Notes: generated by a model from the letters alone, not told the origin. Counted from the first letter of the stretch, positions 1-16,612 are shown. The stretch is DNA of 64,000 bases from Kiritimatiellia bacterium (GCA_040768005.1 JAXGNL010000004.1:18153-82152), one strand, 5' to 3'. A program made the numbers and translations.

Positions 1-750
1 GCCCTCGCCGCGCAACTCCGCGCCGCCGGCCTGTGGTCCGTCTGCGTCAGCCTCGATGCCGACACGGCCGAGGCCCACGACGCCGCCCGCGGCCCCGGCT
101 CGTTTGCCGTGGCCCTCGAGGCTCTGCGCCTCGCCCGCGCCCAGGGCTTCTACACCATGGCCGGCATGGTCGCCACGCCCGCCGCCGTCCGCGCCGGCAT
201 GCCAAACCGCATCCACCGCCTGCTCGCCGGACTGCGCGCGCACGAACTGCGCATCGTCGAAGCCATGCCCTGCGGCGGACTCTCCGGCTGCGCCGCCTCG
301 GCGCTGCTGGCGCCCGGCGACATCGCCGCCCTCCGGCGGTTCCACGTCGAAACCAACCGCGCCCGGCACGGCCCCAAAGTCTGCGCGTTCAACCATGTCG
401 AAAGCCCCGAGATCTTCGGCTGCGGCGCCGGCACCCAGCACCTCTTCATCGAACCCTCCGGTGTCGTCTGCCCCTGCGACTTCACCCCGCTCGGCTTCGG
501 CAACGTCCGCGACACCCCCCTCGCCGACCTCTGGCACCGCATGAACCTCGCCATGGGCGACAATCCCCGCACCCATTGCTTCATCCAGCGCCACCGCGAT
601 GCCGTCCAGGCCCGCGCCGCCGCCGGCTTTCCCCTGCCGCCCGACCTCAGCGAGCAGATCTGCCGCGAGGCCGGCCCCGAACCCCTCCCCGCCTATTTCG
701 CCCTCGTCACGTCGAACACCCGCGCCCCAACACCCGGAGATGCCCCATGA
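1..750 (+). CDS. radical SAM enzyme, C-terminal SPASM/twitch-domain portion; 5' end lies outside the window
   Basis: Frame 1 is open from nt 1 to a TGA at 748-750. Translation contains the Cys-rich auxiliary-cluster motif CGAGTQHLFIEPSGVVCPCDF typical of SPASM-domain radical SAM proteins. Confidence 0.65.
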   Translation, partial: ALAAQLRAAGLWSVCVSLDADTAEAHDAARGPGSFAVALEALRLARAQGFYTMAGMVATPAAVRAGMPNRIHRLLAGLRAHELRIVEAMPCGGLSGCAASALLAPGDIAALRRFHVETNRARHGPKVCAFNHVESPEIFGCGAGTQHLFIEPSGVVCPCDFTPLGFGNVRDTPLADLWHRMNLAMGDNPRTHCFIQRHRDAVQARAAAGFPLPPDLSEQICREAGPEPLPAYFALVTSNTRAPTPGDAP

Positions 751-1331
751 GCCTGACCCAACGCAAGGTGCTGTTTGTTCTCGTTGCCGCCGCCGCCGGC
801 TTCATTAGCGGACTGCTCGTTCCTCTCGTGTTCGGCGTGCGCGGCGCCATTCTCGGCGGGGCGCTGGCCATCGGCGCTCTTTTCCTGCACCCGCGCCCCG
901 GCGACGGGACTCCTGCGCCCAGGAACCTGGCCGCCACCCTGGGGCTGTCCCTGGCCGTGGCCGCCGCCGCCTTTGCCGCCATTTGCCTTTGGCAGCTGCT
1001 CGTTCCCCATATCCTGCGCCAGACTGACTTCGACGTCACGGGCCTCCCCCCGGCAGCCTCCGCGCTGACCACCTGGTCCTATGCCGCCACCCTCCTGCTG
1101 TTCTACCGCGAACGCCAGGCCGGCCGCCGCCGCGCCTGGGCGTGGTTCGCCGCCGCCCCCCTCCTGGGCACCGCCCTCCGCGCGTGGGGATTCCATGAAC
1201 TCGCCGCCGTCCCCTACATCTTCATCCAAGGCGCCCTCCCCTTCACCGCCCTCTGGCTGCTCGCCGCCCTCCTCGCCGATCCCGCCTGGACCCGCAAGCG
1301 CAGAAGCCGTTACGGGCTTCGATCTCCCTGA
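747..1331 (+). CDS. small integral membrane protein (hypothetical), translationally coupled to the radical SAM gene
   Basis: ATG 747 overlaps the upstream stop (ATGA). About 190 aa with 3-4 hydrophobic helices (LFVLVAAAAGFISGLLVPLVFGV..., AATLGLSLAVAAAAFAAICLW...). No recognisable family. Confidence 0.5.
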   Translation: MSLTQRKVLFVLVAAAAGFISGLLVPLVFGVRGAILGGALAIGALFLHPRPGDGTPAPRNLAATLGLSLAVAAAAFAAICLWQLLVPHILRQTDFDVTGLPPAASALTTWSYAATLLLFYRERQAGRRRAWAWFAAAPLLGTALRAWGFHELAAVPYIFIQGALPFTALWLLAALLADPAWTRKRRSRYGLRSP

Positions 1332-1412
1332 CCCCTTCTCTCCGTTCCCTCTGCACCCGGCCCCCTTGTTCCCGGGCTTGACCCGCCGCCCGGGTTGCAG
1401 GACAGTTTCCCC

Positions 1413-2525
1413 ATGCGCCGCCTGCTTGTCCTCATCCTGTCCGGAGCCGTCATGACCGCTTCCGCCTCCCCCCCCCTGCGCGTCGCCTGCGTCGGCGACA
1501 GCATCACCTACGGCGACCGTCTCGACGACCGCCTCCGCGACGCCTATCCCGCCGTCCTGAACCGCCTCGCCAACGGCCGCTTCGTCGCCGGCAATTTCGG
1601 CGTCAACGGCGCCACCGCCATCGCCGGCATTCCCTTCCGCTCCTGGTCCGCCACCCAGGCCTGCCGCGACGCCATGGCCTTCCACCCCGATATCGTCGTC
1701 GTCATGCTCGGCATCAATGACCTCGCCTTCCCCGATCTCCACAACCGCTATCCCCGGGATCTCCGCGACCTCGTCGAACGCTTCCAGGCCCTGCCCTCCG
1801 CTCCGCGCCTCTTCCTCTGCACCCTGACCCCCGTGGCCGCCGATGCCCCCGACGCCCCCGTCAACCGGACCATCCGCGGCACCCTCAACCCCGCCATCCG
1901 GACCGTGGCCGCCCAGACCGGTGCCGGCATCATTGATCTCTCTCCGGTTTTCGACAACCGCTTCCACCTCTTTCCCGACGGCCTGCATCCCGACCCCGAA
2001 GGCGCCGAACTCATCGCCCGAACCGTCCTGAAGTCCCTGGAGTCCGCCGCCGCGCCGGCCGGCTCCCTCCCCCCGGCCCCCGTCTCCGGCCCCCCCTCGG
2101 AATCCATCCGCCGCGAAGCCCGGGCCGCCCGCTTCCGCGCCGAACTCTGGCTTCAGGACCACCCCGCCCCGGTACCGCCCTCCCAACCGGACGCGCCGGA
2201 AACGGAACAGCCTCCCACGCGCCCCGAAGACCTCGCCGCCCTGCTGCCCCTGCTCGAAGGCGCCATTCCCGCCGGCCTCGCCGACCCGTTCTGCGCCTGC
2301 GCCGAACTGGCCGAGGCTCTCGCCCGCATCGGACACGATACCGTGTTCCTCGACGACTCCCGCCCCGTCGCCTGGCGCGAAGCCCTCCTCCACCAGCTCG
2401 TTCAGCGCCAGCGCATCGATTCCCGCGGACGCGGCTTCTGGGGCGACGGCGACGAGGCCGCCGAACTCGCCCGCTCCACCGCCTGCGCCCTCCGGGCCCT
2501 CGAAGCCGCCGGCATCGGCCCGTAA
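1413..2525 (+). CDS. secreted SGNH/GDSL-family hydrolase with ~170-aa C-terminal extension of unknown function
   Basis: Signal peptide MRRLLVLILSGAVMTASA. GDSIT block (VACVGDSITYGD) and a downstream DGLHP block characteristic of SGNH hydrolases. ATG at 1413 is in frame with the track ORF 1395..2525. Confidence 0.7.
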   Translation: MRRLLVLILSGAVMTASASPPLRVACVGDSITYGDRLDDRLRDAYPAVLNRLANGRFVAGNFGVNGATAIAGIPFRSWSATQACRDAMAFHPDIVVVMLGINDLAFPDLHNRYPRDLRDLVERFQALPSAPRLFLCTLTPVAADAPDAPVNRTIRGTLNPAIRTVAAQTGAGIIDLSPVFDNRFHLFPDGLHPDPEGAELIARTVLKSLESAAAPAGSLPPAPVSGPPSESIRREARAARFRAELWLQDHPAPVPPSQPDAPETEQPPTRPEDLAALLPLLEGAIPAGLADPFCACAELAEALARIGHDTVFLDDSRPVAWREALLHQLVQRQRIDSRGRGFWGDGDEAAELARSTACALRALEAAGIGP

Positions 2526-2792
2526 AAATATCGCGTTGCGTTCGCTGCGGGCCACCCGCGGCTGTCATCCCGAGCTTGCTTGCCTCGCCGGAGCCTTGCG
2601 CGAAGGCGGGTCGAGGGATCTCGATCCCGGTCCCGCCGGCCCGCCGTTGGGATCAGGCCGGGATATTTCGACTCCGGCGCGATGCGCCTTCGCTCAATAT
2701 GACCCGAGCTTGCACCCAATCGCAGATGCGCCCCGCCCCCCCCGCCGTGCTTTTGGCTGGTGTCCGGCCGCGCCCTGCGGCAGGATGCCCCC

Positions 2793-3587
2793 ATGATGCG
2801 TCCCGACCATTTGAAAATCTCCGCCTGCGTCACCGCCGGCAACGAGGAGGACAAGATCGCCGCCTGTCTCGCCAGCCTGTCCTGGTGCGATGAAACCATT
2901 GTCGTGGACTCCTTCAGCCGGGACAAAACCTTCGAAATCTCCAAACAGTACACCCCCCACGTCTATCAGCACGCCTGGGAAGGCTACATCGCCCAGAAAA
3001 ACTACATCCGCTCCCTCGCCCACTATCCCTGGATCCTGTTCGTGGACGCCGACGAAGTGGTCTCCAAGGCCCTGCGCGACGAAATCGAGACCGAATTCCA
3101 GCGCGGCCCCGGCGACGTGGCCGGCTACAGCTTCCCCCGCATGGTCCATTATCTCGGCAAATGGATCCGCCACGGCGAATGGTACCCCGACATCAAACTG
3201 CGCCTGTTCCGGAAGGACCGCGGCCATTCCGAAGGCCAGGAACCCCACGACCGCGTCGTCGTGGACGGCCCCGTCAAAACCCTCCGCGCCCCCCTCTACC
3301 ACTTCACCTACGACAACCTCGCCGACCACATCCATACCATCAACCGGTTCTCCTCCATCACCGCCAACGAGAAATACCACCGCGGCGACGTCTTCCGCTG
3401 GCGCGATCTGTTCTTCCGCCCCCCCTTCCGCTTCTTCAAGTCCTACATCCTGAAAACCGGCCTCCTCGACGGCCGCCAGGGCTTCATCATCGCCGTCCTG
3501 TCCGCCTTCGGCGTCTTCGTCAAGTATGCCAAGCTCCTGGAACTCGGCATCCAGCACCGCCCCCCCGATCCCCGGCCCCATGACTGA
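2793..3587 (+). CDS. family-2 glycosyltransferase, LPS-core type (WaaE/KdtX-like)
   Basis: ORF 2760..3587. ATG 2793 gives MMRPDHLKISACVTAGNEED...VDSFSRD...FVDADE, the GT-A fold with a DxD-like DADE motif. Its stop overlaps the start of the next gene by 8 nt. Confidence 0.75.
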   Translation: MMRPDHLKISACVTAGNEEDKIAACLASLSWCDETIVVDSFSRDKTFEISKQYTPHVYQHAWEGYIAQKNYIRSLAHYPWILFVDADEVVSKALRDEIETEFQRGPGDVAGYSFPRMVHYLGKWIRHGEWYPDIKLRLFRKDRGHSEGQEPHDRVVVDGPVKTLRAPLYHFTYDNLADHIHTINRFSSITANEKYHRGDVFRWRDLFFRPPFRFFKSYILKTGLLDGRQGFIIAVLSAFGVFVKYAKLLELGIQHRPPDPRPHD

Positions 3588-5670
3588 ACCCGCCTGGCAG
3601 ACGCGCGGCCCCTGGCGCCTCCTCATCGCCTCCGGCCGGGACCGGCCCGGCTTCGATGAAACCCTCGCGCGCCTCCCGTTTCTCGTGGAAAAAGAGGCGG
3701 CCCCCCTCGTCCGCCCCGGCCGCCACCGCGTGGACCGCCTCCTGCTGTCCTGCGGCGACGCCACCATGGACGCCGTCGTCAAATCCTACGGCGCGCAGGC
3801 CGCCTGGCGCGACCGCCTCGCCCTGCGGCACGGCTCCAAGGCCGAACGCGCCTTCCGCACCGCCCTCGCCCTCCGCGACGCCGGCGTCGGCACCCCCGCC
3901 CCCATCGCCGTCGTCGAACGCTGGGAAGGCCCCCGCCTCCGCGACAGCCGCCTCGTCTCCGCCTTCGTCCCCCGCCTGACCAGCTTCCGCGACGAACTCG
4001 ATCGCCTCTATGCCGAAGCTCCCCGCTGCACCCCCCTCATGGACCTGCTCCAGGCCGTCGCCGGCGCCGTCCGGGCCCTGCACGATGCCGGCATCCTCCA
4101 CCGCGACCTCGGCAACCAGAACATCGCCCTTCAGCGCGACCCCGATCAGCCCGGCGCCCCCTGGAACGTCCTGTTTCTCGACCTCAACCGCGCCCGCCAG
4201 ATCCCCGCCCCCACCCCCGCCCAGCGCGGCGCCGATCTCGCCCGCCTCGACCTGCCCTCGGATTTCCGCCGCGTCTTCCACGCCATGTACCACCACGGCC
4301 ATTCCCCGCCGCCCGAGTTCGCCGACGCCGAACAACGCGCCCGCGCCGCCTTCGACCGCCATACCGCCCTGCGCCCCCTCCGCCATCCCCTGCGCGAAGC
4401 CCGCCTCCGCCGCCAGAACGCCGGCGTCACCCCCCCCCTGCGCGGACGCGACATCTGGATCTGGGACGACCGCTCCGCCCAGGCCATCCCCGCCTATGCC
4501 CCCCGCGACCGCCGGCGCCTCCTGCCCGCCGCCAACGTCACCGCCGCCCTGCGCGGCATCGCCCGTACCGGCCTCGCCATCCGCCGCCGCCACCGCGACC
4601 TTCTCCGGCAGAGCTTCCAGGCCCCCGTGCCGTTCGACGGCGCCATCGGCATGACCCTCGACGCCGAACCCGCCGCCTGGTCCCGCCAGCTCGCCTTTCT
4701 CGATCAGCTGCAGGGCGAACAGAAACTCCCCCTCCTCCTCCGCCTCTATCATCACCAGAATCCCGAGGCCTGGCACTGGACCCTCGACCAGGCCCTGAAC
4801 CTCCACCGCCGCGGGCATTCCGTCGCCCTTGCCCTCGTCCAGGACCGCCGCGCCATCCGCGAACCCAAAGGCTGGCGCCAGATGGTCACCCTCGCCTTCG
4901 ACCGCGCCCACACCTTCGCCGACTTCTTCGAAATCGGCCACGCCGTCAACCGCTCCAAATGGGGCATCTGGGATTTCCGCGACTACGCCCGCCTGCTCGA
5001 CCCCGTCCGGTCCAGCCTCATCCAGTATCCCGACGCCCGGATCACCGGGCCCGCCTGCATCGATTTCGAACCCCACGCCCTCGCCGCCCTGCTCGAGATC
5101 CTTCCCCCGGACATCCGCTTCCACGCCCTCTCCCACCACCTTTACGTGGACCGCCGCGGCGCCCCCGAAAACCGCCAGGGCCCTCACGACACCGTCTCCA
5201 AATGCGCCCTCCTGCGCGCCTTCGCACGCGTCCATTCCTTCACCGACGACCGGCCCCTCATCACCGAAGTCAACTGGCCCCTCGCCGGCACCGGCCCCTG
5301 GTCCCCCGTCACCTCCCCCTACGAAACCCTCGCCCCCCGCCAAAACGATCCCTCCGTCAGCGAAGACACCTACGCCGCCTACATGGCCCGCTACCTCCTG
5401 CTGACCATCGCCTCCGGCCACATCGCCCGGGTCTACTGGTGGCGCCTCGCCGCCCGCGGCTTCGGACTCGTGGACGACACCGATCCCGCCGCCTGGCGCC
5501 CCCGCCCCGCCTTCACCGCCCTGCAAACCATGCTCCGCCAACTCCGCGGCGCCGCCTTCTCGCGCAAACCCGAAACCCCTCCCGGCGAAGTCGCCCTCGA
5601 ATTCACCCGCCCCGACGGGTCCCCCCTCACCGCCCGCTGGACCCTCGACACCCCCCCCGTGTGGGACTGA
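3580..5670 (+). CDS. two-domain protein: N-terminal lipopolysaccharide kinase (Kdo/WaaP/InaA family) domain fused to a C-terminal clan GH-A-like TIM-barrel domain
   Basis: ATG 3580 (MTEPAWQ...) lies inside ORF 3526..5670. N-terminal ~300 aa carry kinase-like HRDLGNQNIAL ... LFLDLNRA motifs. C-terminal ~390 aa carry glycoside-hydrolase-like strands (FFEIGHAVN, PLITEVNWP). It is a single uninterrupted frame of 696 aa. Confidence 0.6.
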   Translation: MTEPAWQTRGPWRLLIASGRDRPGFDETLARLPFLVEKEAAPLVRPGRHRVDRLLLSCGDATMDAVVKSYGAQAAWRDRLALRHGSKAERAFRTALALRDAGVGTPAPIAVVERWEGPRLRDSRLVSAFVPRLTSFRDELDRLYAEAPRCTPLMDLLQAVAGAVRALHDAGILHRDLGNQNIALQRDPDQPGAPWNVLFLDLNRARQIPAPTPAQRGADLARLDLPSDFRRVFHAMYHHGHSPPPEFADAEQRARAAFDRHTALRPLRHPLREARLRRQNAGVTPPLRGRDIWIWDDRSAQAIPAYAPRDRRRLLPAANVTAALRGIARTGLAIRRRHRDLLRQSFQAPVPFDGAIGMTLDAEPAAWSRQLAFLDQLQGEQKLPLLLRLYHHQNPEAWHWTLDQALNLHRRGHSVALALVQDRRAIREPKGWRQMVTLAFDRAHTFADFFEIGHAVNRSKWGIWDFRDYARLLDPVRSSLIQYPDARITGPACIDFEPHALAALLEILPPDIRFHALSHHLYVDRRGAPENRQGPHDTVSKCALLRAFARVHSFTDDRPLITEVNWPLAGTGPWSPVTSPYETLAPRQNDPSVSEDTYAAYMARYLLLTIASGHIARVYWWRLAARGFGLVDDTDPAAWRPRPAFTALQTMLRQLRGAAFSRKPETPPGEVALEFTRPDGSPLTARWTLDTPPVWD

Positions 5671-5749
5671 TCCCCCGCCCGGCAAACCGGGCGTCGTCCC
5701 CCGGGCACTCGTCCCCGCAACCCTCGAGTCCAACCGTCTCCCCCCCTGC

Positions 5750-5858
5750 ACGGTGTTTATAAACTCCGATACCCCCGAATCAATACTGTCTTCTATAACG
5801 CTTCTTACTTGCTCATGAATAAGCAGATATGAAGTGAACGGTGTTTATAAACTCCGAT
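5750..5858. repeat. two identical 21-bp direct repeats (ACGGTGTTTATAAACTCCGAT), each a near-palindrome, flanking a 67-bp AT-rich spacer between convergent gene ends
   Basis: Copies at about 5750-5770 and 5838-5858, seen directly in the sequence. The core GTTTATAAAC is self-complementary. Local GC is far below the ~70% window average. Confidence 0.8.
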
Positions 5859-5875
5859 CACTTTCTGAAGAGTGT

Positions 5876-6523
5876 TCAGGGCAGGACGTGCCAGAGGATG
5901 GCGCAAAAATGACAGGCGGCGCCCGCCAGCACCAGCAGGTGCCAGACCGCGTGGTGGTATCGCACGCGCTTGAACAGATAGACCACCGCGCCCGCGGTGT
6001 AGCACAGCCCCCCCGCCCACAGCCAGCGCACCCCCGCCGCCGACATGTGCTCCACCAGCGGCTTCATCGCAAACACGATCACCCACCCCATCAGCACGTA
6101 CAGCGCCGTGCTCGCCGCCTTGAACCGCCCCGTGAAGAATCCCTGAAAGACCATCCCGACCGCCGCGATCCCCCACACCACCCCGAACAGCGTCCAGCCC
6201 AGCGCTCCCCGCAGCGTGATCAGCACGAACGGCGTGTACGTCCCCGCGATCATCAGGAAGATCATCTCGTGATCCAGCACGCGGAACACCCGCTTCACCC
6301 TCGGCCACGGAAAGCTGTGGTACAACGTGGACGTCGTGAACATCAGCACCATCGCCGCCCCGTAGATCGCGCACGGCGCCACCTGCCAGGCCCCCTCCCC
6401 GCGCTGCACCGCCGCCACCATCAGCACCACCAGGCCGGCAATCCCCAGCACCGCCCCCAGCCCGTGCGTCACCGCATGGGCAATCTCCTCGCCCACCGTG
6501 TATCTGGACGCCGAAGCGCTCAT
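5876..6523 (-). CDS. hemolysin-III / PAQR family membrane protein (YqfA-like)
   Basis: ORF 5876..6634. ATG at 6523 gives MSASASRYTVGEEIAHAVTHGLGA..., with seven hydrophobic helices and the conserved His-rich termini of the HlyIII family. Confidence 0.8.
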   Translation of the reverse strand: MSASASRYTVGEEIAHAVTHGLGAVLGIAGLVVLMVAAVQRGEGAWQVAPCAIYGAAMVLMFTTSTLYHSFPWPRVKRVFRVLDHEMIFLMIAGTYTPFVLITLRGALGWTLFGVVWGIAAVGMVFQGFFTGRFKAASTALYVLMGWVIVFAMKPLVEHMSAAGVRWLWAGGLCYTAGAVVYLFKRVRYHHAVWHLLVLAGAACHFCAILWHVLP

Positions 6524-6590
6524 GCCGCCTGCCCCGGTTCCCCGCGACCTTGTGCGGCCGGCCCCAGACCCCCGCGCCCTCGCGCCGGGA

Positions 6591-6662
6591 TTTTCCACGC
6601 CATGGAAAACTGTTCCGCCGGTTTTCCACGCCATGGAAAAGATTTTTCCACACCGTGGAAAA
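6591..6662. promoter_or_regulatory. array of three 19-bp palindromic sites TTTTCCAC-N3-GTGGAAAA upstream of the hemolysin-III gene
   Basis: ttttccacgccatggaaaa at 6591-6609 and again at 6622-6640, and ttttccacaccgtggaaaa at 6644-6662. Centre-to-centre spacings are 31 and 22 bp. The array lies between the hndD 3' end and the hlyIII start, 68-140 bp upstream of the hlyIII ATG. Confidence 0.6.
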
Positions 6663-6698
6663 TCCGGAAAATGCCGATCCCTGTCACGATCCCGGCTC

Positions 6699-8442
6699 CT
6701 AGCGCTTGTACTTCCGCCGCGGCCGGTAGCCCGTGTGCAGCAGCTCGTGGGACTTGTGCCCCAGCGGCGCGCCCAGGAAATCCTTGTAGAGCTTCTGGAT
6801 CATCGGATTTTCGTGCGAACAGCGGAACGCGCTCTTTTCATCGTCGCGGTAGATGCCCGCCGCGCGCTGCGCGCGGATCTCGTCGGTGGCGCCGTACGGC
6901 TGCCCGCCGCCGCCCACGCAACCCCCGCGGCACGCCATCACCTCGATGAAGTGGAACGGCGTCTCCACCCCCTTCTTCCGTGCCGCGCGCACCTTGTCGA
7001 GCACCTTCTCGATGTTGGCCATCGAGTGGGCCACCGCCACGCGCACTTCCTTGCCCGCCACCTGCAGCGTCGCCTCCTTCACGCCGTCGAGCCCGCGGAT
7101 CGCCGTCAGTTCCATCGTGGGCAGCCGCCCTTGTCAGCGCTCCAGTGCGCCGTGCGCAGCGCGGCCTCCATCACGCCGCCGGTCACGCCGAAGATCGTGC
7201 CCGCCCCCGTGTAGTCGCCCAGCACCGAGTCCACCCTGCTCGTCGTCGGGCAGGTTCGGGAAGTCGATCCCCGCGCTCTTGATCATCCGGCAGAGCTCGC
7301 GCGTCGTCAGCGAATAATCGATGTCCTGCTGCCCGAGCTGCTCATCTCCTCGCTGCGGCGGATCTCGAACTTCTTGGCCGTGCAGGGCATGATGGACACC
7401 ACAAACAGGTCCTTGGGATCCAGCCCCAGCCGCTTGGCGTAGTAGGCCTTCAGCGCCCCCACCATCGCCTGCGGCGACTTGGCCGTCGAGAAGTTCGAAT
7501 GAAGTCCGGCGCGAATTTCTCCATGTAGTCGGTCCACGATTGGCAGTAGTTGGTGATCAGCGGCAGGTCGCCCTCGCTGTTCACGAAGCGCTCGATGAAC
7601 TCGGAGCCCTCCTCCATGATCGTCAGGTCCGCGCCGAAATTCGTGTCGAACACCGCGTTGAACCCCAGCCGCCGCAGCGCGGCGTAGATCTTGCCCGTCA
7701 GCAGCGTCCCCGGCTCGTAGCCGAAATCCTCCTCCAGCGCCACGCGCACCGCCGGGGCGATCTGCACCACGCAGCAGCCGGGTCCGCCAGCGCCGCGTAC
7801 ACTTCCTTCGCGTGGCTGTGCTCGTAGATCGCCCTCACCGGACAGTGCGCCGAGCACTGCCCGCACTGGATGCACGGCGATCGCCAGCGTCACGTCCGCC
7901 GCCGGCGCGATGCGCGTGGTCTCCCCGCGCCCGATGAACTCCAGCGCCCACACCCCTGCATCTGCTGGCACACCGCCGCGCACCGCCCGCACAGAATGCA
8001 CTTCTCCGGATTCAGGATCAGCGCATCCCGTCGTGTCGTCCGCCGGCAGGTCCCGCAGCCGCTTGCCGTAGGGCGCCTCGCGCACCCCGAACTCCGCCGC
8101 CAGCCGCTGCAGCTCGCAGTTGTTGTTGCGCGGGCACTGCAGGCAGTCGTCCGGATGCGTCGAGAGAATCAGCTGGATCACCGTGCGCCGGATGCCGTAG
8201 AGCTCCGGATCGTGGGTCGTGACCTCCTGGCCGTCCGCCGCCGGCGCCACGCACGCGCGCACCAGCTTGTTGAACCCCTTGATCTTCACCACGCAGATCC
8301 CGCACGCCGCCCACGCCGGCAGGTCCGGGTGGTAGCACAGGCTCGGAATCTTCACCTGCACCTGCTTCGCCGCGTTCAGGATCGTCGTGCCCTCCGGCAC
8401 CTCCACCGGCAGCCCGTTGATGGTCAGCTTGACTGTCTTCAT
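6699..8442 (-). pseudogene. hndD: [FeFe]-hydrogenase catalytic subunit (HndD/HydA-type), interrupted by multiple frame breaks
   Basis: Consecutive pieces of one HydA homolog lie in three track ORFs in different frames (7450..8607, 7307..7537, 6699..7115), and further pieces lie in untracked frames. The N-terminus has a 2Fe-2S block (CYHPDLPAWAACGICVV) and a His-ligated 4Fe-4S block (HPDDCLQCPRNNNCE). The ferredoxin motifs CILCGRCAAVC and CIQCGQCSAHCP are only recovered in alternative frames. H-cluster motifs MPCTAKKFE and FIEVMACRGGCVGGGGQP are present. I counted at least 6-8 frame switches by hand. The start ATG overlaps the hndC stop (ATGA). Confidence 0.85.
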
Positions 8443-10248
8443 CGTTCCATCCCTCTCGCCTGGCGGCTCACGGCGCCGAACTTGCACGCCTTGAGGCACT
8501 CGCCGCACTTGATGCAGTTCTCCTGGAGGATCCGGTGCGGCTTCTGCCGCTCGCCCTCGATCGTGTTCACCGGGCACTTGCGCGCGCACAGCGTGCAGCC
8601 GATGCACTTGGCCGGATCGATCTCGTAGGTCACCAGCTTCTTGCAGACCCCGGCCGGACAGCGATGGTCCTCGATGTGCGCCCGGTACTCCTCCGCGAAA
8701 TAGTGCACGTCGAGAGCACGGGTCGGGCGCCGGCCTGCCCCAGCCCGGCCAGCGCCGCCTTCTGCATCGCCGCGCCCACCTCCCGGATCTTGTCGAGATC
8801 CTCCGCCTCGCCGCGCGCCCTCGCGCAGATCTTCTCGAGCAGGTTCAGCAGCGTCCGCGTCCCGATCCGGCACGGCGCGCACTTGCCGCAGCTCTCCTTG
8901 TCCACGCAGAATTCCTGCAGAACTGCGCCACGTACAGCATGCAGTCGTCCTCGTCCATCACGATCATGCCGCCCGAGCCCATGATCGACCCCAGCTCCTG
9001 CAGATGCTCGTAGTCGATCGGCGTGTCCAGATACTCCGCCGTGATCACCCCGCCCGACGGCCCCCCCGTCTGCACCGCCTTGAACGCCTTGCCGCCCCGG
9101 ATCCCCCCGCCGATGTCGTAGATGATCTCCCGCAGCGTGATGCCCATCGGCACCTCGATCAGCCCCGAATTGATGATCTTGCCCGTCAGCGCAAACACCT
9201 TCGTGCCCGGGCTCTTCGGCGTGCCCACCTTCGCGAACGCCTCGCCCCCGTTGAGCAGAATCACCGGAATGTTCGCGTACGTCTCGACGTTGTTGATCAC
9301 CGTCGGCTTCTGCCACAGCCCCGACACCGCCGGGAACGGCGGACGCGGAATCGGCATGCCCCGCTTGCCCATGATCGACGCCAGCAGCGCCGTCTCCTCC
9401 CCGCAGACGAACGCCCCCGCCCCCAGCCGGATCTCCACGTCGAAATCAAACCCCGATCCCAGGATGTTCGCACCCAGCAGCCCGTACTCGCGCGCCTGCG
9501 CGATCGCCGTCTCCAGGTGCTCGATCGCCAGCGGATACTCCGCGCGGATGTAGATCACCCCCCTGGACGCCCCCACCGTCCGCCCCGCGATCGCCATCGC
9601 CTCCAGGATCGAGTGCGGATCGCCCTCGATCGTCGACCGGTCCATGTACGCCCCGGGATCCCCCTCATCCGCGTTGCACACCACGTACTTCTCGCCGCCC
9701 GGCGCGTCCTTCGTGAACTTCCATTTCATCCACGTCGGAAACCCCGCCCCGCCCCGCCCCCGCAGGCCGGACTTCTTCAGCTCCTCCACCACCTGGTCCG
9801 GCGTCATCTCCGTGAGCACCTTCGCCAGCGCCTCGTACCCCATCCGCGCGATGTATTCGTCGATCTTCTCCGGATCGATCACCCCGCAGTTGCGCAGCAC
9901 CATGCGGTACTGCTTCTGGTAGAACGACAGCTCCTCCATCCGGATCAGCGAGCGGTCCCGCCCCTTTTCGTACAGCAGCCGCTGCACCGGACGCCCCTTC
10001 AGCACGTGCTCGGCCACGATCTCCCGCGCGTCCGACGGCTGCACGCTGACGTAGAACGTCTCGTCGGGCAGGATCTTCACGATCGGCCCCTTCGCGCAGA
10101 AGCCGAAGCAGCCCGTCCGCACCACCTGCACCTTCCCCTGCGCCCCCTGCGCCGCCACCTCCTGCACCAGCGCCTCGTAGAGCTCGTTGCTGTGCGTCGC
10201 CACGCAGGCCGTTCCCCCGCACACCAGAATGTAGGTCTTGATCGCCAT
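8439..10248 (-). pseudogene. hndC: NAD(P)H-binding flavoprotein subunit of hydrogenase (HndC / NuoF-like), two frame breaks near the 3' end
   Basis: ORF 8845..10248 (MAIKTYILVCGGTAC ... GGMIVMDEDDCMLYVAQFC) continues in a different frame in ORF 8630..9316 (EFCVDKESCGKCAPCRIGT ... PVLST) and then in ORF 8439..8882 (LDVHYFAEEYRAHIEDHRCPAGVC...CIGCTLCARKCP...CIKCGEC). This is a NuoF-like core plus C-terminal 2x[4Fe-4S]. Confidence 0.85.
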
Positions 10249-10263
10249 CGCCCGGTCCTTCCT

Positions 10264-10656
10264 CTACTTGTGTATGATGTCCACCGCCGGCCGGTCGAAA
10301 ATGTGGTCGTCCACCAGCAGCTTCCGGACAATGTGCTGGTTCACGATCTTGCGCGCCGTCTCCGCATCCACGTTCCCGTAGATCACCGCCGGCATCCCCG
10401 GCGCCAGCACCTCCACCGTCGGCTCGCTGTGGCACAGGCCCATGCACCCCGTGTGCCGGATGCGCACGCGCCGCACCCCCGCCTTCACCAGCTCCTCCGC
10501 AAACACCGTCAGCAGGTCGATCGCCCCCGCCGCGATCCCGCACGTGCCCATCCCCACGATGATCTGCACCTCCAGCACGTCCGCCTTGCGCACGTGGAAC
10601 TCCGCCGCGCGCGCCTCGCGCAGCTTCCTCAGATCCTCCAATGCCAGCTTTGCCAT
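10264..10656 (-). CDS. hndB: small thioredoxin-like [2Fe-2S] ferredoxin subunit (HndB-like)
   Basis: ATG 10656 gives MAKLALEDLRKL...IVGMGTCGIAAG...RHTGCMGLCHSEP. A GAGG ribosome-binding site lies upstream. Confidence 0.7.
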   Translation of the reverse strand: MAKLALEDLRKLREARAAEFHVRKADVLEVQIIVGMGTCGIAAGAIDLLTVFAEELVKAGVRRVRIRHTGCMGLCHSEPTVEVLAPGMPAVIYGNVDAETARKIVNQHIVRKLLVDDHIFDRPAVDIIHK

Positions 10657-10673
10657 CCCGCACCTCGCTTCCG

Positions 10674-11186
10674 CTATTCCGCCCGCGCCTTCGCCTGGTA
10701 CTGCGCCACGATCCCCGCCACGTCCTCGCGCTTCAGGTTCCCGTGCATCGTGCCGTTCACCGACATCACCGGCGCCAGCCCGCAGCACCCCAGGCACCGC
10801 ACCGCCTCCACCGAAAACAGCCCGTCCGGCGTCACCGTGTTCAGCCCCACCCCCAGGATGTTCTCCAGCTCCTGCAGCAGATCCGCCGCCCCCTTCAGAT
10901 AGCACGCCGTGCCCATGCACACCGAAATCTGGAACCGCCCCGGCTTCTTCAGCTTGAAGAAATGGTAGAACGTCAGCACCCCGTACACCTTCGCCAGCGG
11001 GATCCCCAGCTGCTCCGCCACCTGGAACGCCGCCGGCCGCGGCACATACCCGAAATGCTCCTGCACCTTGTGCAGCACCATGATCAGATTGCCCGGCTCG
11101 TTCTTCCACTTCCGGATGAACGCCTCCAGCTCCGGCGTCAACGCCTCGTCCGCCGCCGGCTCCTTTTCCTGTTCCTTCGTGCCCAT
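10674..11186 (-). CDS. hndA: NuoE-like [2Fe-2S] subunit of NADP-reducing hydrogenase (HndA)
   Basis: 170 aa with a NuoE/HoxE-type Cys pattern (SVCMGTACYLKG ... CLGCCGLAPV). First gene of the minus-strand operon. Confidence 0.85.
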   Translation of the reverse strand: MGTKEQEKEPAADEALTPELEAFIRKWKNEPGNLIMVLHKVQEHFGYVPRPAAFQVAEQLGIPLAKVYGVLTFYHFFKLKKPGRFQISVCMGTACYLKGAADLLQELENILGVGLNTVTPDGLFSVEAVRCLGCCGLAPVMSVNGTMHGNLKREDVAGIVAQYQAKARAE

Positions 11187-11244
11187 CTCATTCCTCCATC
11201 CATCGGGATGTAAATGCTCACAGGCTATGGAAACGCTTTCCCGG

Positions 11245-11280
11245 ATTCAAGTGTTATTTTATTCATGATTTCACTTGAAT
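11245..11280. promoter_or_regulatory. 9-bp inverted repeat ATTCAAGTG-N18-CACTTGAAT in the AT-rich hndA/rex divergent promoter region
   Basis: Seen in the sequence at 11245-11253 and 11272-11280. Additional CTTGA/TCAAG half-sites occur at about 11316 and 11349. The intergenic region 11187-11342 has markedly low GC. Confidence 0.35.
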
Positions 11281-11342
11281 TGCATATTCCATCATTTTAT
11301 GGTCTTTTTGTAATAATATTCATGACTTGATAAGGATATATC

Positions 11343-11984
11343 GTGAAAGTCAAGAACATGATGATGCAAAAGGACATGATCCAGCGCCTGATTCGCTATA
11401 AAAACGCCCCTGCAAGAAATTCGAAGTCGCTGGGATTGACCCGAGTCTTCTCCGACAATCTGGGCGAAGCCGCCGGAACTTCCGCCGCGCTGGTGCGCAA
11501 GGACATCTCGCTGGCCGGCCTGACGGTCGGCAACAAGCGCGGGGGCTATCCCATTGACGCCCTGCTGCAGGGCCTCGACGCCCTTCTCGGCACCGACACC
11601 CAGCAGCGCGTCATCCTGGTCGGCTGCGGCAAAATCGGCACCGCCCTCATGCACTATCCCGGATTCTCCTCCGAATCCATCCAGATCGTCGCCGGATTCG
11701 ACAACAAACCCGACCGCCTGGACCCCGATGCCGCCATTCCCATTCTCCCGGTCGGCCAGCTCCCCGCGTCTGTGAAGGAAAACGGCATCCAGGTGGCCAT
11801 CCTGGCCGTGCCGGAATCCGCCGCCGCGGCGGTCTTTGATCAGCTCGCCGCCGCCGGCATCCAGGGCGTGCTCAATTTCTCCCCCGTCCAGCTCAAACCC
11901 GCCCCCGCCCTCATCGTCCAGAACATCAACATCGCCCTCGAAATCGAAAATCTCTTCACCTGCATCCGCTTCAACCAGCGGTGA
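11343..11984 (+). CDS. rex: redox-sensing transcriptional repressor Rex
   Basis: N-terminal winged-helix block (IQRLIRY ... RKDISLAGLTVGNKRGGYPIDALL) followed by an NAD(H)-binding Rossmann fold (RVILVGCGKIGTALMHY ... VAILAVPESAAAAVFDQLAAAGIQGVLNFSPVQL). The track start is a GTG at 11343. ATGs at 11358-11364 are alternative starts. Confidence 0.85.
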   Translation: MKVKNMMMQKDMIQRLIRYKNAPARNSKSLGLTRVFSDNLGEAAGTSAALVRKDISLAGLTVGNKRGGYPIDALLQGLDALLGTDTQQRVILVGCGKIGTALMHYPGFSSESIQIVAGFDNKPDRLDPDAAIPILPVGQLPASVKENGIQVAILAVPESAAAAVFDQLAAAGIQGVLNFSPVQLKPAPALIVQNINIALEIENLFTCIRFNQR

Positions 11985-12002
11985 CCCGCCCCCCCCTTGC
12001 CG

Positions 12003-13093
12003 GTGTCAGGCACTGACAATGTTGACAATTCAGGCGGCTAGCCCGCAGAGGTCCATGCGGCCGATAGTTGCTCCATAATCGCGTTGAGTTCCGAATCCTC
12101 CGCCATTCTCTGCCGAAGGCGCGCTGCCTGGCGACACACAGCGCCCGCTGTTTCGAATCCCAGAAACTCCGCCACGGCGCGTTGCGTCATGCGGCTATGC
12201 CGCATCAGCATGGATACGGCCGCCGCCCGGGCCTTTCCGCCATAGGACCGCCGAAACAGGGACTCCTCCTCCACCCCGAATGCCAGCGCCACCCGGTGAA
12301 CCACTTCTTCCGGCTCGATACGGACCGCCACCCGCCGCATGGCCTCCGAGCGAGTCCCGCGAATCGTTTCCGGCTCCGTGGAAGTCCGTTCCGAAACCTT
12401 GTCGCGAGATTGTTCCAATCCACTCTCCTGCTCCAGCCGGGACCAAGACCATGAAAGGCCCGTCTCAACAAACCGGCGATAGGCGGCACGCCGATGGGCC
12501 ATTTGTTTCTTCCCCATCAAAGCCAGGAGCGGCTTGTCATCCAGCATCTCCGACGCCGGAGCCAGGCCGGCATAAACCCGAAAGCTGCTCCAGGGATATC
12601 CACTCAAATAAGCCAACCTCTGCCTGTGTGAACCTTGCGGAGTCAACTCGCGGTTCACGGGATTCAGATGGATATACCGAGACAGATTCAGCAAATAGCG
12701 ATCCCCCTTCACCAGGACCGCCCCGTACCGCCCCTGCATCAGATGGCCGGTGCGGTCGTGCCGCAGATTGAAGTACAGCGTATAGGCCGTTTGCAACCGA
12801 TGCATGAAGCGGCTGAGATTGCCCCGCGGAGTTTCCACCAGCAAATGAAAATGGTTGGGCATGAGGCAGTACAGATAGAGACGAACGCCATCCTGCTCCA
12901 CGGCCAGGTCCAGGTTCTCCATAAAACGCCGCCGGTCTGCGTCGTCCATGAAAATCAATCCGCGACCCACTCCCCGCTGCGTCACGTGATAGATCGCACC
13001 CTCGTATTCAACTCGCCGCTTTCTGCCCATGCCATCATCCTGCCGGTTCTTTGTTCCCCCTGCAAGCAAATTGTCAGTGTCAGGCACTGACAT
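12003..13093. mobile_element. ~1.09-kb IS200-like mini-element (copy 1) bounded by REP-like hairpins
   Basis: The sequence GTGTCAGGCACTGACA (stem TGTCAG/CTGACA) occurs at 12003-12018 and 13077-13092, and each is followed by a TGACAATT-like segment. Between them lies a single transposase gene. Confidence 0.6.
12038..13030 (-). CDS. IS200-like HuH (Y1) transposase with C-terminal DnaA-like HTH domain (RAYT-like)
   Basis: ATG 13030 (MGRKRRVEYEGAIYHVTQRG...). HuH motif LMPNHFHLLVETP and catalytic-Tyr region GRYGAVLV...YIHLNP. The C-terminal ~100 aa resemble DnaA domain IV. Confidence 0.8.
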   Translation of the reverse strand: MGRKRRVEYEGAIYHVTQRGVGRGLIFMDDADRRRFMENLDLAVEQDGVRLYLYCLMPNHFHLLVETPRGNLSRFMHRLQTAYTLYFNLRHDRTGHLMQGRYGAVLVKGDRYLLNLSRYIHLNPVNRELTPQGSHRQRLAYLSGYPWSSFRVYAGLAPASEMLDDKPLLALMGKKQMAHRRAAYRRFVETGLSWSWSRLEQESGLEQSRDKVSERTSTEPETIRGTRSEAMRRVAVRIEPEEVVHRVALAFGVEEESLFRRSYGGKARAAAVSMLMRHSRMTQRAVAEFLGFETAGAVCRQAARLRQRMAEDSELNAIMEQLSAAWTSAG

Positions 13094-13167
13094 TTTATTT
13101 TTGACATATGTTGTTGCCGGATTGACGGGGATGGCATGAACGGTATCTTGAAAGAGGAAGTAATCCC

Positions 13168-16116
13168 GTGAAACGAATCCGCCGTATTTTCCGACTGGCG
13201 GCAGGGGCGTGTCTCCTGCTGGCGGCAGGCGCTGCCGCCGGCTCCCCGAACGCCTTCCGCACCCTGGTCGTCGTCAATACCAACTCGCCCGATTCGGTGG
13301 AACTCGGCACCTACTACGCGGAGCAGCACGGCATCCCCGCCCACCACATCTGCTCCCTCGGCATCGCCACCAATCTGGTTTCCGCCGGGTCCAACCAGTT
13401 CCACTCTCTGCTGCGAACCCCCGTCACCAACCACATCGCCGCCGAAAACCTCGACAGCCAGATCGATTTTGTCGTGCTGTGCGGAGCGTTTCCCACCCGG
13501 GTGGAAACCGTAGAGGGCGTCAGCGCCTCGCTGTTCTACGGCTTCCAGAATGCCCCCGGCTACAACGAAGGCGGCATCGGCTGCAACCTGCCCGATTTCA
13601 CCTCCAACGCCTACTTTCGCGCCGAGCGCGCCTTCCGCTCCGCCGACGGCTGGAACGATACCAACGGCTTCATCGCCTTTCATCTCATCGCCTCCAACCT
13701 GCCCGTCGCCAAACTGGTGGCGGACCGCGGCGCCGCCGCCCAATCCACCTTTCCTCCCTCGTCTTTCAATCTGCACATCCTCGGCAGCATCGGGCGCAGC
13801 GTCCGCGAAGCCCGCTTTGCCCACACCCGGTTTTCCTTCACCGCGCTGCCCGGCCTGGTTCCCCGGTGCCTCCTCGGCCCCTATCTCCAATACCTCTCCG
13901 GCAGCACCAATGCCATGGGCTATCACGACGGCTTCGGAAACATCCCGGCGATCTGCCGCACCAACAATATCTGGCTGCCGGGCGCGTATGCCGACCACAT
14001 GACCTCCTGCGGGGGAATGATCCCGGATCCCTGCGACAATCAATCCACCGTTCTGGACTGGATGGAGATCGGCGCCACCGCCTCCTACGGCACCGTGGAC
14101 GAACCCTGCAACTACCTGGAAAAATATCCGGATCCCCTCATGGCCTTCTGGTACGCCCGCGGATTCACCATCGGCGAAGCCTACGCCATGTCGCTTGAAG
14201 CCCCCTACCAGGGCCTGCTGGCCGGCGATCCCCTCGCCGCTCCCTTTGCCGCCGGCCCGCTGATCACCGTCACGTCGCCCGTCCCCTGGCAGATCGTCAC
14301 CGGCTCCATCCCGGTTCAGGTCTCCGCCGGCGCGCACCCCCAGGGGGGGCCGGCCGCCGCCCTCGACCTCTACCTTGACGGCCGCTGGCAGGCCGCCCTG
14401 ACCAACCTGGCCCCGACCCCCGGCAATGAACTCTCGGTTGTCGTCGGCGACCGCACCAACACGGTGGCCGTCAGCCCGGGCGACACCCTCTGCGATGCCG
14501 TCTCCAACCTGGCGGAAGCCGTCAATGCCGACGCCGCCTGCGTCGCCTCCGCCCGGGCGTGGGGCGACCGCCTTGAACTGGTTTACAAACACTTCGATCT
14601 CGCCGGCGACCATGTCCCGGTTTCCGCCTTCGCCGCCACGGGATCCGCCTCCGTTCTGACCCTCGGCACCGGCCTGGCCGCCACCAATCTCCATCCCAGC
14701 ACCTACTTCGCCCGCAAACGCCTGTTTCTTTTCGCCCATACCAACGGGATGTCCACCAACGTCGCCAACGCCGGCGACACCATCACCCTCGCGATCACCC
14801 TGACCAACGGCGTCGCCGTCACCAATCAATTCGTCGCCACCGCCGGGCAAACCATCACCAGCCTGATCGAGCAGATCCAGTTCGCCATCAACACCAATCC
14901 CGTTCTCAAGGCCAACAGCGGCGTCCGCTTCACCTATCTGGCCAACGGCATCGGCAACGTTCTGAATGACGGAACCCTCCTGGCCCGCACCGCGGGCCCC
15001 CGGGGCGGCACCAACCGGGTGGACTACACCGTCACGCCCGTCACCACCAACTACGGGCTGAGAACCAATTTCAATTTCTCGGGCTTCATGGACGACAATC
15101 CCGATGACGTCCGCCCCCGCGCCAATATTCTGTTCCACCTCACCCCCGGCAGCGGAAATCTGGAGGCCGCCACCTCTCTCGACACGGTTCCCCTCGACGA
15201 CGGCATCCACACGCTGGATGTCATCGCCCGCGACGGCTCCGCCGTCGCCGCCGCGTCCCGCCTGTCTCTCCCCCTGGCCGTTGCCAACACCTCGCTCGCA
15301 CTCCGTGTCTCCTCCGCCCACGGCAGCGGCTCCCCGCCTGCCGGGGTTTTCATCCATCCGCCCGGCGCCGTCCTGACCAACTCCATATCCGTCCCGGCTT
15401 CCTCCAACGGCACCCAGTTCGTCTGCACCGGCTGGGTCCTGACGGGCAACGAACCGCTGTCCGGCTCCGCCACGAATTTCACGATGACCCTGACCAACCA
15501 CGCCGAACTCACCTGGCTGTGGACCACCAACTACTGGCTCGATACCGAAGCCGGCGAACATGGCGCCGTCAATGTCCCGGACTCCTGGCAGCCCGGCGGC
15601 GTCTCCACCCAGATCACCGCCCTCCCCGACGCGTATTACGGCCTGGCGGAGTGGACCGGAGACGCCTCCGGAACGAATAATCCCCTGGACCTGCTGATGG
15701 ACGCCCCCCAAACGGTGCAGGCGACCTTCACCGCCCTGCTGGCCACCAACGGCACCCCCCAGTGGTGGCTGGCCGGGCACGGCTGGACCAACGACTTCGA
15801 CGCCGCCGCCACGAACGACGTGGATGAAGACGGCCGTTTCACCTGGCAGGAATATGTCGCCGATACCGACCCGACCAACGCCGCCAGTTTCCTGCATCCG
15901 CTGAGCACAACGGGCACCGTGGATTCGCTGGTCATCGGCTTTGATCCCACGTCCACCGGACGCCACTACTGGATCGACGCCACGGCGCTCATCGAATCCC
16001 CCGACTGGTCCAACCTCACCAACGCTCCCGGCACCGGCGGCGCCTGGCAGCCGGAATGGATCCCCCCCGCCACCGGGCTGCATTTCTACCGCGGACGGGT
16101 TTCCCTCCCCCCGTAA
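13168..16116 (+). CDS. large secreted repeat protein (982 aa) with C-terminal InlB-B-repeat-like/Ig-like domains
   Basis: Signal peptide MKRIRRIFRLAAGACLLLAAGAAAG. Thr/Asn/Gly-rich beta-repeat composition. Blocks of the C..GW...G....F and YGLAEWTGD type resemble the divergent InlB B-repeat. No catalytic motifs recognised. Confidence 0.55.
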   Translation: MKRIRRIFRLAAGACLLLAAGAAAGSPNAFRTLVVVNTNSPDSVELGTYYAEQHGIPAHHICSLGIATNLVSAGSNQFHSLLRTPVTNHIAAENLDSQIDFVVLCGAFPTRVETVEGVSASLFYGFQNAPGYNEGGIGCNLPDFTSNAYFRAERAFRSADGWNDTNGFIAFHLIASNLPVAKLVADRGAAAQSTFPPSSFNLHILGSIGRSVREARFAHTRFSFTALPGLVPRCLLGPYLQYLSGSTNAMGYHDGFGNIPAICRTNNIWLPGAYADHMTSCGGMIPDPCDNQSTVLDWMEIGATASYGTVDEPCNYLEKYPDPLMAFWYARGFTIGEAYAMSLEAPYQGLLAGDPLAAPFAAGPLITVTSPVPWQIVTGSIPVQVSAGAHPQGGPAAALDLYLDGRWQAALTNLAPTPGNELSVVVGDRTNTVAVSPGDTLCDAVSNLAEAVNADAACVASARAWGDRLELVYKHFDLAGDHVPVSAFAATGSASVLTLGTGLAATNLHPSTYFARKRLFLFAHTNGMSTNVANAGDTITLAITLTNGVAVTNQFVATAGQTITSLIEQIQFAINTNPVLKANSGVRFTYLANGIGNVLNDGTLLARTAGPRGGTNRVDYTVTPVTTNYGLRTNFNFSGFMDDNPDDVRPRANILFHLTPGSGNLEAATSLDTVPLDDGIHTLDVIARDGSAVAAASRLSLPLAVANTSLALRVSSAHGSGSPPAGVFIHPPGAVLTNSISVPASSNGTQFVCTGWVLTGNEPLSGSATNFTMTLTNHAELTWLWTTNYWLDTEAGEHGAVNVPDSWQPGGVSTQITALPDAYYGLAEWTGDASGTNNPLDLLMDAPQTVQATFTALLATNGTPQWWLAGHGWTNDFDAAATNDVDEDGRFTWQEYVADTDPTNAASFLHPLSTTGTVDSLVIGFDPTSTGRHYWIDATALIESPDWSNLTNAPGTGGAWQPEWIPPATGLHFYRGRVSLPP

Positions 16117-16130
16117 CCCCCCTCTCTCCG

Positions 16131-16188
16131 AAAACGAAAAAGCGAAGCCCGCAGGCTTCGCTTTCTTCCCGTTCACGATTCGGTGAAC
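16131..16188. terminator. bidirectional rho-independent terminator pair between the convergent 982-aa gene and infA
   Basis: Hairpin AGCGAAGCC-CGCA-GGCTTCGCT (16141-16162) flanked by an A-tract (AAAACGAAAA) on one side and TTCTT on the other. A second hairpin GTTCAC-GATTCG-GTGAAC lies at 16171-16188. Read on the minus strand the pair is followed by TTTTTCGTTTT. Confidence 0.6.
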
Positions 16189-16192
16189 CGTC

Positions 16193-16417
16193 TCAGGTTT
16201 TTTCGCGGAACGTGATCCGCCCCTTGGTCAGGTCATGCGGACTGATCTCCACCGTGACCTTGTCCCCGGTCGTGATCTTGATGAAATGCCGCCGCATCTT
16301 CCCCGAAATATGCCCCAGGATTTCGTGCCCGTTCGACAGCCGCACGCGGTACATCGTCGCCGGCAGCACTTTCACCACCTCGCCGGATACCGTAATCAGA
16401 TCGCTTTCCTTCGCCAT
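16193..16417 (-). CDS. infA: translation initiation factor IF-1
   Basis: ATG 16417 gives [71 protein letters not shown], a near-canonical S1-fold IF-1. Confidence 0.95.
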
Positions 16418-16612
16418 AGGGCCACATAACTCCTTACTGCCAGCCAGGGAAGCTATCAGGATTTCCCCGCCCCATGCAACTGTTTTCACGACAGCGCCCC
16501 CCAGGCGGTCGGATCCATGGGCGAATCAGGTCCGCCTCTTCACCGCCCCCCTGCGGCCTTTCTTCCTGCCCGTGATTTTGCAAACGCCGCCAACTGGGGT
16601 ACGTTGCCAACC

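Follow-up and report, generated by a model that had tools for sequence, protein, structure and literature searches.

Window-only changes in hndC and hndD of a Kiritimatiellia rex–hndABCD hydrogenase operon are confined to a 2-kb patch of most likely technical origin

Gene content of the locus

The analyzed DNA is a stretch of 64,000 nucleotides (nt) from a Kiritimatiellia bacterium (GCA_040768005.1 JAXGNL010000004.1:18153-82152), here called the window, with a GC content of ~67%. It includes the hydrogenase genes hndA, hndB, hndC and hndD together with rex, the gene of a redox-sensing repressor (Table 1). As judged from its genes, the locus is a standard Kiritimatiellia rex–hndABCD operon for an electron-bifurcating [FeFe]-hydrogenase of the HydABC type (group A3, or 'A6' of NCBI). 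Operons of this kind are already known, and near-identical intact copies are already present in public metagenome-assembled genomes (MAGs). The copy in the window has a patch of 2 kb, located within hndC and hndD, that breaks both genes, and the changes in this patch are most likely of technical origin.

A Hnd-type operon with the genes in the order hndA–hndB–hndC–hndD had been proposed in the original prediction, and the open reading frames (ORFs), the profile matches and the gene order of the relatives all agree with it. Also the intactness of hndA, hndB and rex held. The hndA product matches NuoE/HoxE-family profiles with E-values of 1e-38 to 1e-47, below their equivalog cut-offs, as expected of a NuoE-like 2Fe-2S subunit, and has the same length as the copies of the relatives, which carry PF01257. 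The hndB product matches a 2Fe-2S ferredoxin family weakly (E 4.5e-9), and a gene of 130 amino acids (aa) is found at this position in all the relatives. Rex scored 198.2 bits against NF003996 (cut-off 138) and is 95% identical to the 207-aa Rex of the relatives.

Table 1. Features of the rex–hndABCD locus and its surroundings in the window.
Feature	Position	Strand	Description and basis
hndA, NuoE-like 2Fe-2S subunit	10674-11186	-	170 aa, intact; ORF and NuoE/HoxE-family matches
hndB, small subunit	10264-10656	-	130 aa, intact; frame-2 translation
hndC, NuoF-like flavoprotein subunit	8456-10248	-	In frame from 10248 to ~8918 only, then broken; 595 aa in relatives
hndD, [FeFe]-hydrogenase catalytic subunit	8442 to 6699	-	Three frames, 10 indel events; 584 aa in relatives
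rex, redox-sensing repressor	11343-11984	+	Intact, divergent from the hnd genes; NF003996 match
L1 motif codons, LITNYCQSW	7534-7560	-	LITSCCPSW in relatives; translation and alignment
Anomalous patch	6921-8937		All 30 window-only substitutions and 17 window-only indels; alignment to nine relatives
Tract read as natural allele, hndC 3' part	8529-8968	-	Ten differences from closest relatives, eight synonymous
hndA–rex spacer	11187-11342		156 bp, 34.6% GC; contains inverted repeat
Three copies of 19-nt palindrome TTTTCCACGCCATGGAAAA	6591-6662		Directly 3' of hndD

The closest characterized homologs of the enzyme (HydA1, HydB and 7T2R_B) are bifurcating enzymes. The best PDB matches of the orthologous HndD were HydA1 of Thermoanaerobacter kivui (8A6T_A, E 1e-178) and the corresponding protein of Acetobacterium woodii (7Q4V_A/8A5E, E 2e-175). 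For the orthologous HndC, subunit B of a bifurcating NiFe enzyme ranked first (7T2R_B, E 4.6e-252), followed by HydB (7Q4V_B, E 3.5e-249), and 8A6T_B was matched as well. HydA1 and HydB of the HydABC enzymes, which have been described from T. kivui (8A6T/8BEW), A. woodii (7Q4V/8A5E) and Thermotoga maritima (7P5H), match the orthologs end to end: both systems have a catalytic subunit with a NuoG-like N-terminus and an H-domain, and a NuoF-like flavoprotein with a C-terminal 2x[4Fe-4S] part. In contrast to the three genes of HydABC, the Kiritimatiellia operon has four, with a separate small hndB.

The same tetrameric gene set in the same A-B-C-D order is present in Hnd of Solidesulfovibrio (Desulfovibrio) fructosivorans, although this belongs to a different phylum, is likened to the operon by gene layout and had no entry among the PDB matches returned. 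The enzyme of S. fructosivorans, first named NADP-reducing, oxidizes H2 and passes the electrons on to both NAD+ and ferredoxin by flavin-based bifurcation (PMC7820892, PMC10084766). Since it reduces these two acceptors, 'NADP-reducing' is a legacy name, and the label, which the original prediction had given to the operon, is outdated and does not transfer to it. By analogy, the enzyme of the operon would perform the H2-coupled reduction of NAD+ and ferredoxin, or the reverse reaction.

Frame breaks in hndD and hndC

Insertions and deletions (indels) were counted from the nucleotide alignment of the window to its intact relatives. In hndD the alignment included ten indel events, nine of them frame-shifting, at positions 8024, 7957, 7882, 7779, 7498, 7452, 7335, 7237, 7141 and 7131 (sizes 1, 1, 2, 4, 1, 3, 1, 1, 1 and 2 nt). 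When an intact ortholog (P0001) was used as a tblastn query, the pieces of hndD were found in frames -2, -1 and -3; the single frame of ~570-585 aa that is present in nine relatives is absent from the window. The conserved ferredoxin-type motifs CILCGRCAAVC and CIQCGQCSAHCP appeared in a three-frame translation only outside the frame in which hndD starts. The GC content at third codon positions (GC3), plotted by frame, showed frame hopping at 6.6-8.9 kb and long unbroken frames elsewhere.

Seven indel events, five of which shift the frame, were found in hndC (8918, 8899, 8819, 8733, 8720, 8708 and 8461). In addition, the stop codon is lost by a TGA>CGA change at 8458, and a cysteine serving as cluster ligand is changed (C>G/S at 8749/8748). 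The 467-aa hndC ORF at 8845-10248 covers only positions 10-327 of the 410 in the NuoF profile, and its C-terminal ferredoxin domain is encoded in other frames, so that the window has no complete NuoF-like subunit with N-terminal 2Fe-2S domain, FMN/NADH site, N3-type 4Fe-4S cluster and C-terminal 2x[4Fe-4S] part.

The hndD ORF fragments scored 263.9 and 163.4, while the ortholog P0001 scored 799.9, above the NF040763 cut-off of 765. The 579-aa HndD of the window, repaired by hand, reached 742.6 with this profile, below the cut-off, and 458.1 with TIGR02512 (cut-off 405.95).

The splitting of hndD over at least three ORFs in different frames and the restriction of its ferredoxin-type motifs to alternative frames had been described from the window before, and both descriptions were correct. 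Frame breaks had also been expected in the form of six to eight single-nucleotide switches in hndD and two more in hndC. The breaks themselves exist, though neither count was right, and the events of hndD that shift the frame are 1-4 nt in size.

Comparison with related assemblies

The hand-repaired HndD retrieved many 584-aa proteins from Kiritimatiellia MAGs, up to 96% identical and named 'NADH-dependent [FeFe] hydrogenase, group A6'. Contigs encoding such matches provided five relatives (L001-L005), and four more (L006-L009) were retrieved with a conserved 30-mer at 93-97% identity. The nine assemblies are independent of each other, represent the lineage of the window or sister lineages, and comprise NCBI MAGs, ENA contigs assembled with MEGAHIT or SPAdes, one Logan contig and JGI contigs (records GCA_035447565.1, GCA_035404485.1, GCA_964405875.1, SRR13282997, ERZ27257475, ERZ795048 and Ga0123327/8).

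L001-L005 were 97.6-99.3% identical to window positions 1-19522 at the DNA level with the gene order kept, and L006, L007 and L009 were 93-95% identical. The order shared by the window and the relatives is Kdo-like kinase, HlyIII, hndD, hndC, hndB, hndA and rex. All of L001-L005 have rex (207 aa if complete), a HndA of 170 aa where called, and HndB, HndC and HndD of 130, 595 and 584 aa. The 595-aa HndC and the 584-aa HndD are each encoded in a single frame in all nine relatives, with identities of 97.4-100% between their HndD and P0001 and of 95.6-100% between their HndC and the copy of L002. Because the proteins stay 95.6-100% identical even though the DNA identity falls to 93%, the sequences place hndC and hndD of this lineage under strong purifying selection.

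The intact Kiritimatiellia loci thus have the same gene order and the same HndA and HndB lengths as the window, and they differ from it by their single-frame HndC and HndD, by the canonical LITSCCPSW motif and by lacking the 17 indels and the 30 substitutions that the window has in 6921-8937.

H-cluster motifs

The sequence does read LITNYCQSW at L1, with tyrosine at the position of the proton-relay cysteine, as had been reported, and instead of TSCCPxW the window has TNYCQSW at 7534-7554. This was caused by a group of four substitutions unique to the window, all in a stretch of 11 nt (7550, 7547, 7541 and 7540), which change three residues (S296N, C297Y and P299Q). In a set of 168 full-length homologs, C297 and P299 were conserved in all and S296 in 165, and none of the 168 had N, Y or Q at the altered sites. 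Since all nine close relatives read LITSCCPSW, the altered motif is not a trait of the enzyme family or the lineage. The L2 and L3 motifs, tested with the patterns MPCxxKxxE and ExMxCxxGCxxGGGQP, are intact in the window (SIMPCTAKKFE and EVMACRGGCVGGGGQP), each in a different frame piece.

The preserved motifs (MPCTAKKFE in L2 and the whole of L3), and the fact that the H-cluster-ligating cysteine of L1 is kept, would fit a hydrogenase that is functional as written, that is, a sensory or non-proton-relay variant with TNYCQ at L1, expressed through recoding or programmed frameshifts. Such an enzyme would however need 14 frame-shifting events, which share no slippery context, and its L1 residues are the ones without parallel in the homologs; relatives with 98-99% nucleotide identity are canonical and single-framed. 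Also the invariant glycines G204 (of CPxG) and G235 are altered (G204R and G235E), and even after repair by hand the protein stays below the NF040763 cut-off. A functional variant is therefore hardly credible.

Window-only changes in hndC and hndD

Window positions 5212-12015 were aligned with the relatives, and those columns were kept in which the window agrees with none of the relatives. The window-only differences formed two clusters, one in the rex tract and the other in the hnd patch. The patch covers 2,017 bp between approximately codon 437 in hndC and codon 508 in hndD, and both of its ends are thus inside genes. The other 4,040 bp compared, which included hndA, hndB and HlyIII as well as 1.3 kb at the start of hndC and 220 bp at the end of hndD, had a single window-only change; none fell in hndA, in hndB or in those 1.3 kb of hndC, synonymous sites included.

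The indels of the patch comprised seven insertions and ten deletions, of which eleven were 1 nt, two were 2 nt, three were 3 nt and one was 4 nt in length, giving 0.57 indel events per substitution. No common motif, whether of methylation type or homopolymer, was found in their sequence context, and five of the 17 were situated in runs of at least two identical bases. The events were clustered: 36% of the gaps between them were of 5 nt or less, while the expectation was 11% and none of 5000 simulations exceeded 29%. Some places were locally scrambled, for example AAGAAGCACTGC > GCTGCTGC and CCGAAGAAGCACTGC > CCGGCTGCTGC.

The substitutions disregarded codon position, 25 of the 30 being non-synonymous after the removal of shared polymorphisms. 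They hit residues that are invariant in all the 168 homologs (G204R in the CPxG motif, G235E, C297Y and P299Q), and at 27 of the 30 sites also a more distant, 85%-identical contig (L010) keeps the reference base. Transitions outnumbered transversions by 23 to 7. The spectrum had no AT bias, with AT>GC changes at 0.0163 per AT site and GC>AT changes at 0.0105 per GC site; the usual mutation bias of bacteria is the opposite of this excess.

The upstream end of the patch is overlapped by a small mosaic tract toward the 3' end of hndC (8529-8968), where the window departs from its closest relatives in ten alleles that it shares with the more distant L006, L007 and L009. On this sharing, the sub-tract is read as a natural allele.

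A loss of H2 metabolism, with a first knock-out of hndC or hndD and neutral mutation in place thereafter, would account for many inactivating lesions, among them the losses of the cluster cysteine of HndC, the proton-relay cysteine of L1 and the stop codon. The flanks do not allow it, as the branch leading to the window is very short (one change in 4,040 bp). Neutral change at four times the flank rate would yield two events, and 11 events when this rate is set to its upper 95% limit, against the 47 seen (Poisson, P = 7e-47, and P = 1e-15, respectively). The damage also ends inside both genes, leaving the first 1.3 kb of hndC and the last 220 bp of hndD untouched together with hndA and hndB. 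Since the flank comparison leaves an excess too large for relaxed selection, decay in place in its simple form is refuted, and we regard it as very improbable. The original prediction had left the choice between decay of the operon and a locally high error rate; with a sharp 2-kb patch that runs across genes and an excess beyond relaxed selection (P ≤ 1e-15), the evidence favors the error.

Control tracts and searches for the broken allele

Elsewhere in the 64-kb window no split genes or frame breaks were found, the interval 36.9-43.7 kb being judged by ORF and GC3 tiling only. Full-length products with complete profile coverage included MutS (845 aa, five domains), ClpX, ClpP and trigger factor, and also a 1857-aa alpha-2-macroglobulin, PBP1C, a pair of the xanthine-dehydrogenase family, a hybrid histidine kinase and others were of full length.

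Two tracts of natural divergence were available for comparison with the patch. The rex tract at 11331-11770 included 38 substitutions, of which 29 were at codon position 3 and 30 synonymous. In a 982-aa gene, the gapless alignment to L005 showed 47 substitutions, with 28 in third codon positions. These natural tracts are poor in indels and thus unlike the patch in kind.

No second broken copy was found in the collections searched, against at least nine intact alleles. A window-specific 31-mer over L1 was absent from the GTDB species genomes and the JGI metagenomes. Neither HndA nor either of two fragment products had a record in exact look-ups, and the best match of the broken 330-aa fragment among 5.8 billion proteins was 79% identical. 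The fragment search also brought up P0121, a broken HndD of 333 aa from a related species.

The contig that encodes P0121, L010 (ERZ25039603 contig_59231, 381 kb), has several broken genes within 1-17002: EF-G is in three pieces, hndA in two, hndC is partial and hndD is in two pieces. It is a generally noisy assembly of long-read style. The lesions of its hndD are single-base, non-homopolymer indels and local scrambles similar to those in the patch of the window, which shows that technical error does produce such a pattern in hndD.

Further candidate origins were tried and rejected. A chimeric consensus with another species was dismissed since L010 shares not one of the 30 window-only bases. 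Error hot spots common to the window and L010 were suggested by two insertions in the same columns, which on inspection lay 3-6 nt apart or in a diverged stretch. A diversity-generating retroelement was ruled out by reasoning, the changes not being limited to adenines, including indels and spanning 2 kb, and gene conversion from a functional paralog by the absence of the window-specific residues from all the 168 homologs.

Origin of the patch

A genuine, strain-specific dead form of hndCD could have arisen through a local process, either by homologous recombination bringing in a 2-kb tract of an unsampled lineage whose hndCD had decayed long before, or by localized hypermutation or highly error-prone repair synthesis. 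Recombinant tracts do occur nearby, in the 5' part of rex (~10% diverged) and at 8529-8968, where the L007/L009-like sequence overlaps the end of the patch. The sharp boundaries of the patch fit a recombination tract, the absent codon-position bias fits evolution free of selection, and the clean rest of the window argues against a generally poor assembly. However, no donor-like or identical allele was present in the collections searched, and the hndD part of the patch is without any L007/L009-specific alleles. Decayed pseudogenes typically do not have an indel ratio of 0.57, clustering within 5 nt or a spectrum lacking AT bias, and the replacement of a strongly conserved functional gene by a dead copy should be selected against. 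We also know of no bacterial mechanism giving ~2.3% mutation over 2 kb. A real dead allele is consequently considered unlikely, though clearly less so than decay in place. If true, it would mean the loss of the bifurcating hydrogenase with hndA, hndB and rex left pristine, and a natural knock-out segregating within a species whose enzyme is otherwise under very strong purifying selection. Once confirmed, such an allele would be a modestly interesting natural knock-out and no new kind of system.

The reading that we favor, and consider probable, is that 6921-8937 is a poorly resolved patch of consensus in an otherwise clean assembly, and that the organism has the canonical enzyme of its relatives. 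The changes, observed to be localized, unique to the window and of unselected, clustered and indel-rich character, would most likely have a technical cause. The cell would then most likely encode an intact 595-aa HndC and an intact 584-aa HndD, as does every close relative, and the frame breaks, the lost stop codon of hndC and the TNYCQ version of L1 would most likely be non-biological features of one 2-kb consensus stretch. For example, low depth, a mixture of strains or reads that map ambiguously could have kept such a stretch from being corrected in an assembly of long-read or hybrid type. Speculatively, the overlap of the upstream end of the patch with the tract at 8529-8968, which resembles a second strain, may hint at mixed-strain reads.

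Frameshifting indels have been documented in long-read genomes and metagenomes (bioRxiv 10.1101/2021.08.23.457338; PMC9262707), and errors can outlast short-read polishing where the alignment of reads is unreliable (PMC8812927). In long-read and hybrid assemblies with residual errors, as treated in the proovframe preprint and with Polypolish, small indels break genes that are intact in relatives, as they do in the window. Unlike the errors of those assemblies, the damage in the window forms one 2-kb patch within 64 clean kb and includes many substitutions and non-homopolymer indels.

Several points weigh against a technical origin. It is deduced from the sequence alone. With the rest of the 64-kb window clean, an artefact would need a special local cause, and 430 bp inside the patch itself (8025-8457) are free of errors. 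Three of the 17 indels are in-frame events of 3 nt, and few are in homopolymers, a profile unlike that of the errors classically left over in nanopore assemblies after polishing. Transitions in a ratio of 23:7 would fit real mutation as well.

The main value of the result is as a quality flag, 6921-8937 being an unsafe basis for annotation or metabolic inference. Taken at face value, it would yield two false claims, one of the loss of H2 metabolism in a Kiritimatiellia lineage and the other of a [FeFe]-hydrogenase with tyrosine in place of the proton-relay cysteine.

rex, intergenic spacers and flanking elements

By comparison with the relatives, the true start of rex is likely the ATG at 11358. 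Rex would probably regulate the hnd operon by sensing NADH/NAD+. Together with its leader, the 5' part of rex (11331-11770) is ~10% diverged from all the relatives. Within this tract, a pair of +2 and +1 insertions located 12 nt apart changes NA-LQKFKSL of the relatives to NAPARNSKSL. From its substitution pattern, the tract is a natural and selected divergent allele, probably a recombinant one of the DNA-binding domain.

The divergence of rex from an AT-rich intergenic region, as originally described, was borne out by the low GC content of the spacer in comparison to ~67% in the window. Nowhere in the window was the canonical Rex operator TTGTGAA-N6-TTCACAA matched with three or fewer mismatches. 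The inverted repeat ATTCAAGTG-N18-CACTTGAAT at 11245-11280 is invariant in all the relatives although the surrounding spacer diverges, and it is a possible candidate for the operator.

The palindrome TTTTCCACGCCATGGAAAA, present in three copies behind hndD, is found nowhere else in the window, and one of the copies, which has a T-run, scores terminator-like. The spacer in which the copies lie (6591-6662) is the most variable stretch among the relatives, and it is probably the terminator region of the operon.

Between rex and the 982-aa gene, at 12038-13093, the window has a gene for an IS200-like Y1 transposase of 351 aa. It is present in L002 and L003 and absent in L005, and is thus an insertion polymorphism within the species. 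The 982-aa gene itself, an intact Flg_new_2 surface-protein gene, has ~30 gapless differences at 15100-15440 to L005, the sole relative covering it; this part is read from the alignment as a natural variable region.

The plus strand of the window is C-rich throughout (1-64000), with a GC skew of -0.04 to -0.33 per 2 kb regardless of gene strand, which is a strong strand asymmetry for a genome of 67% GC.

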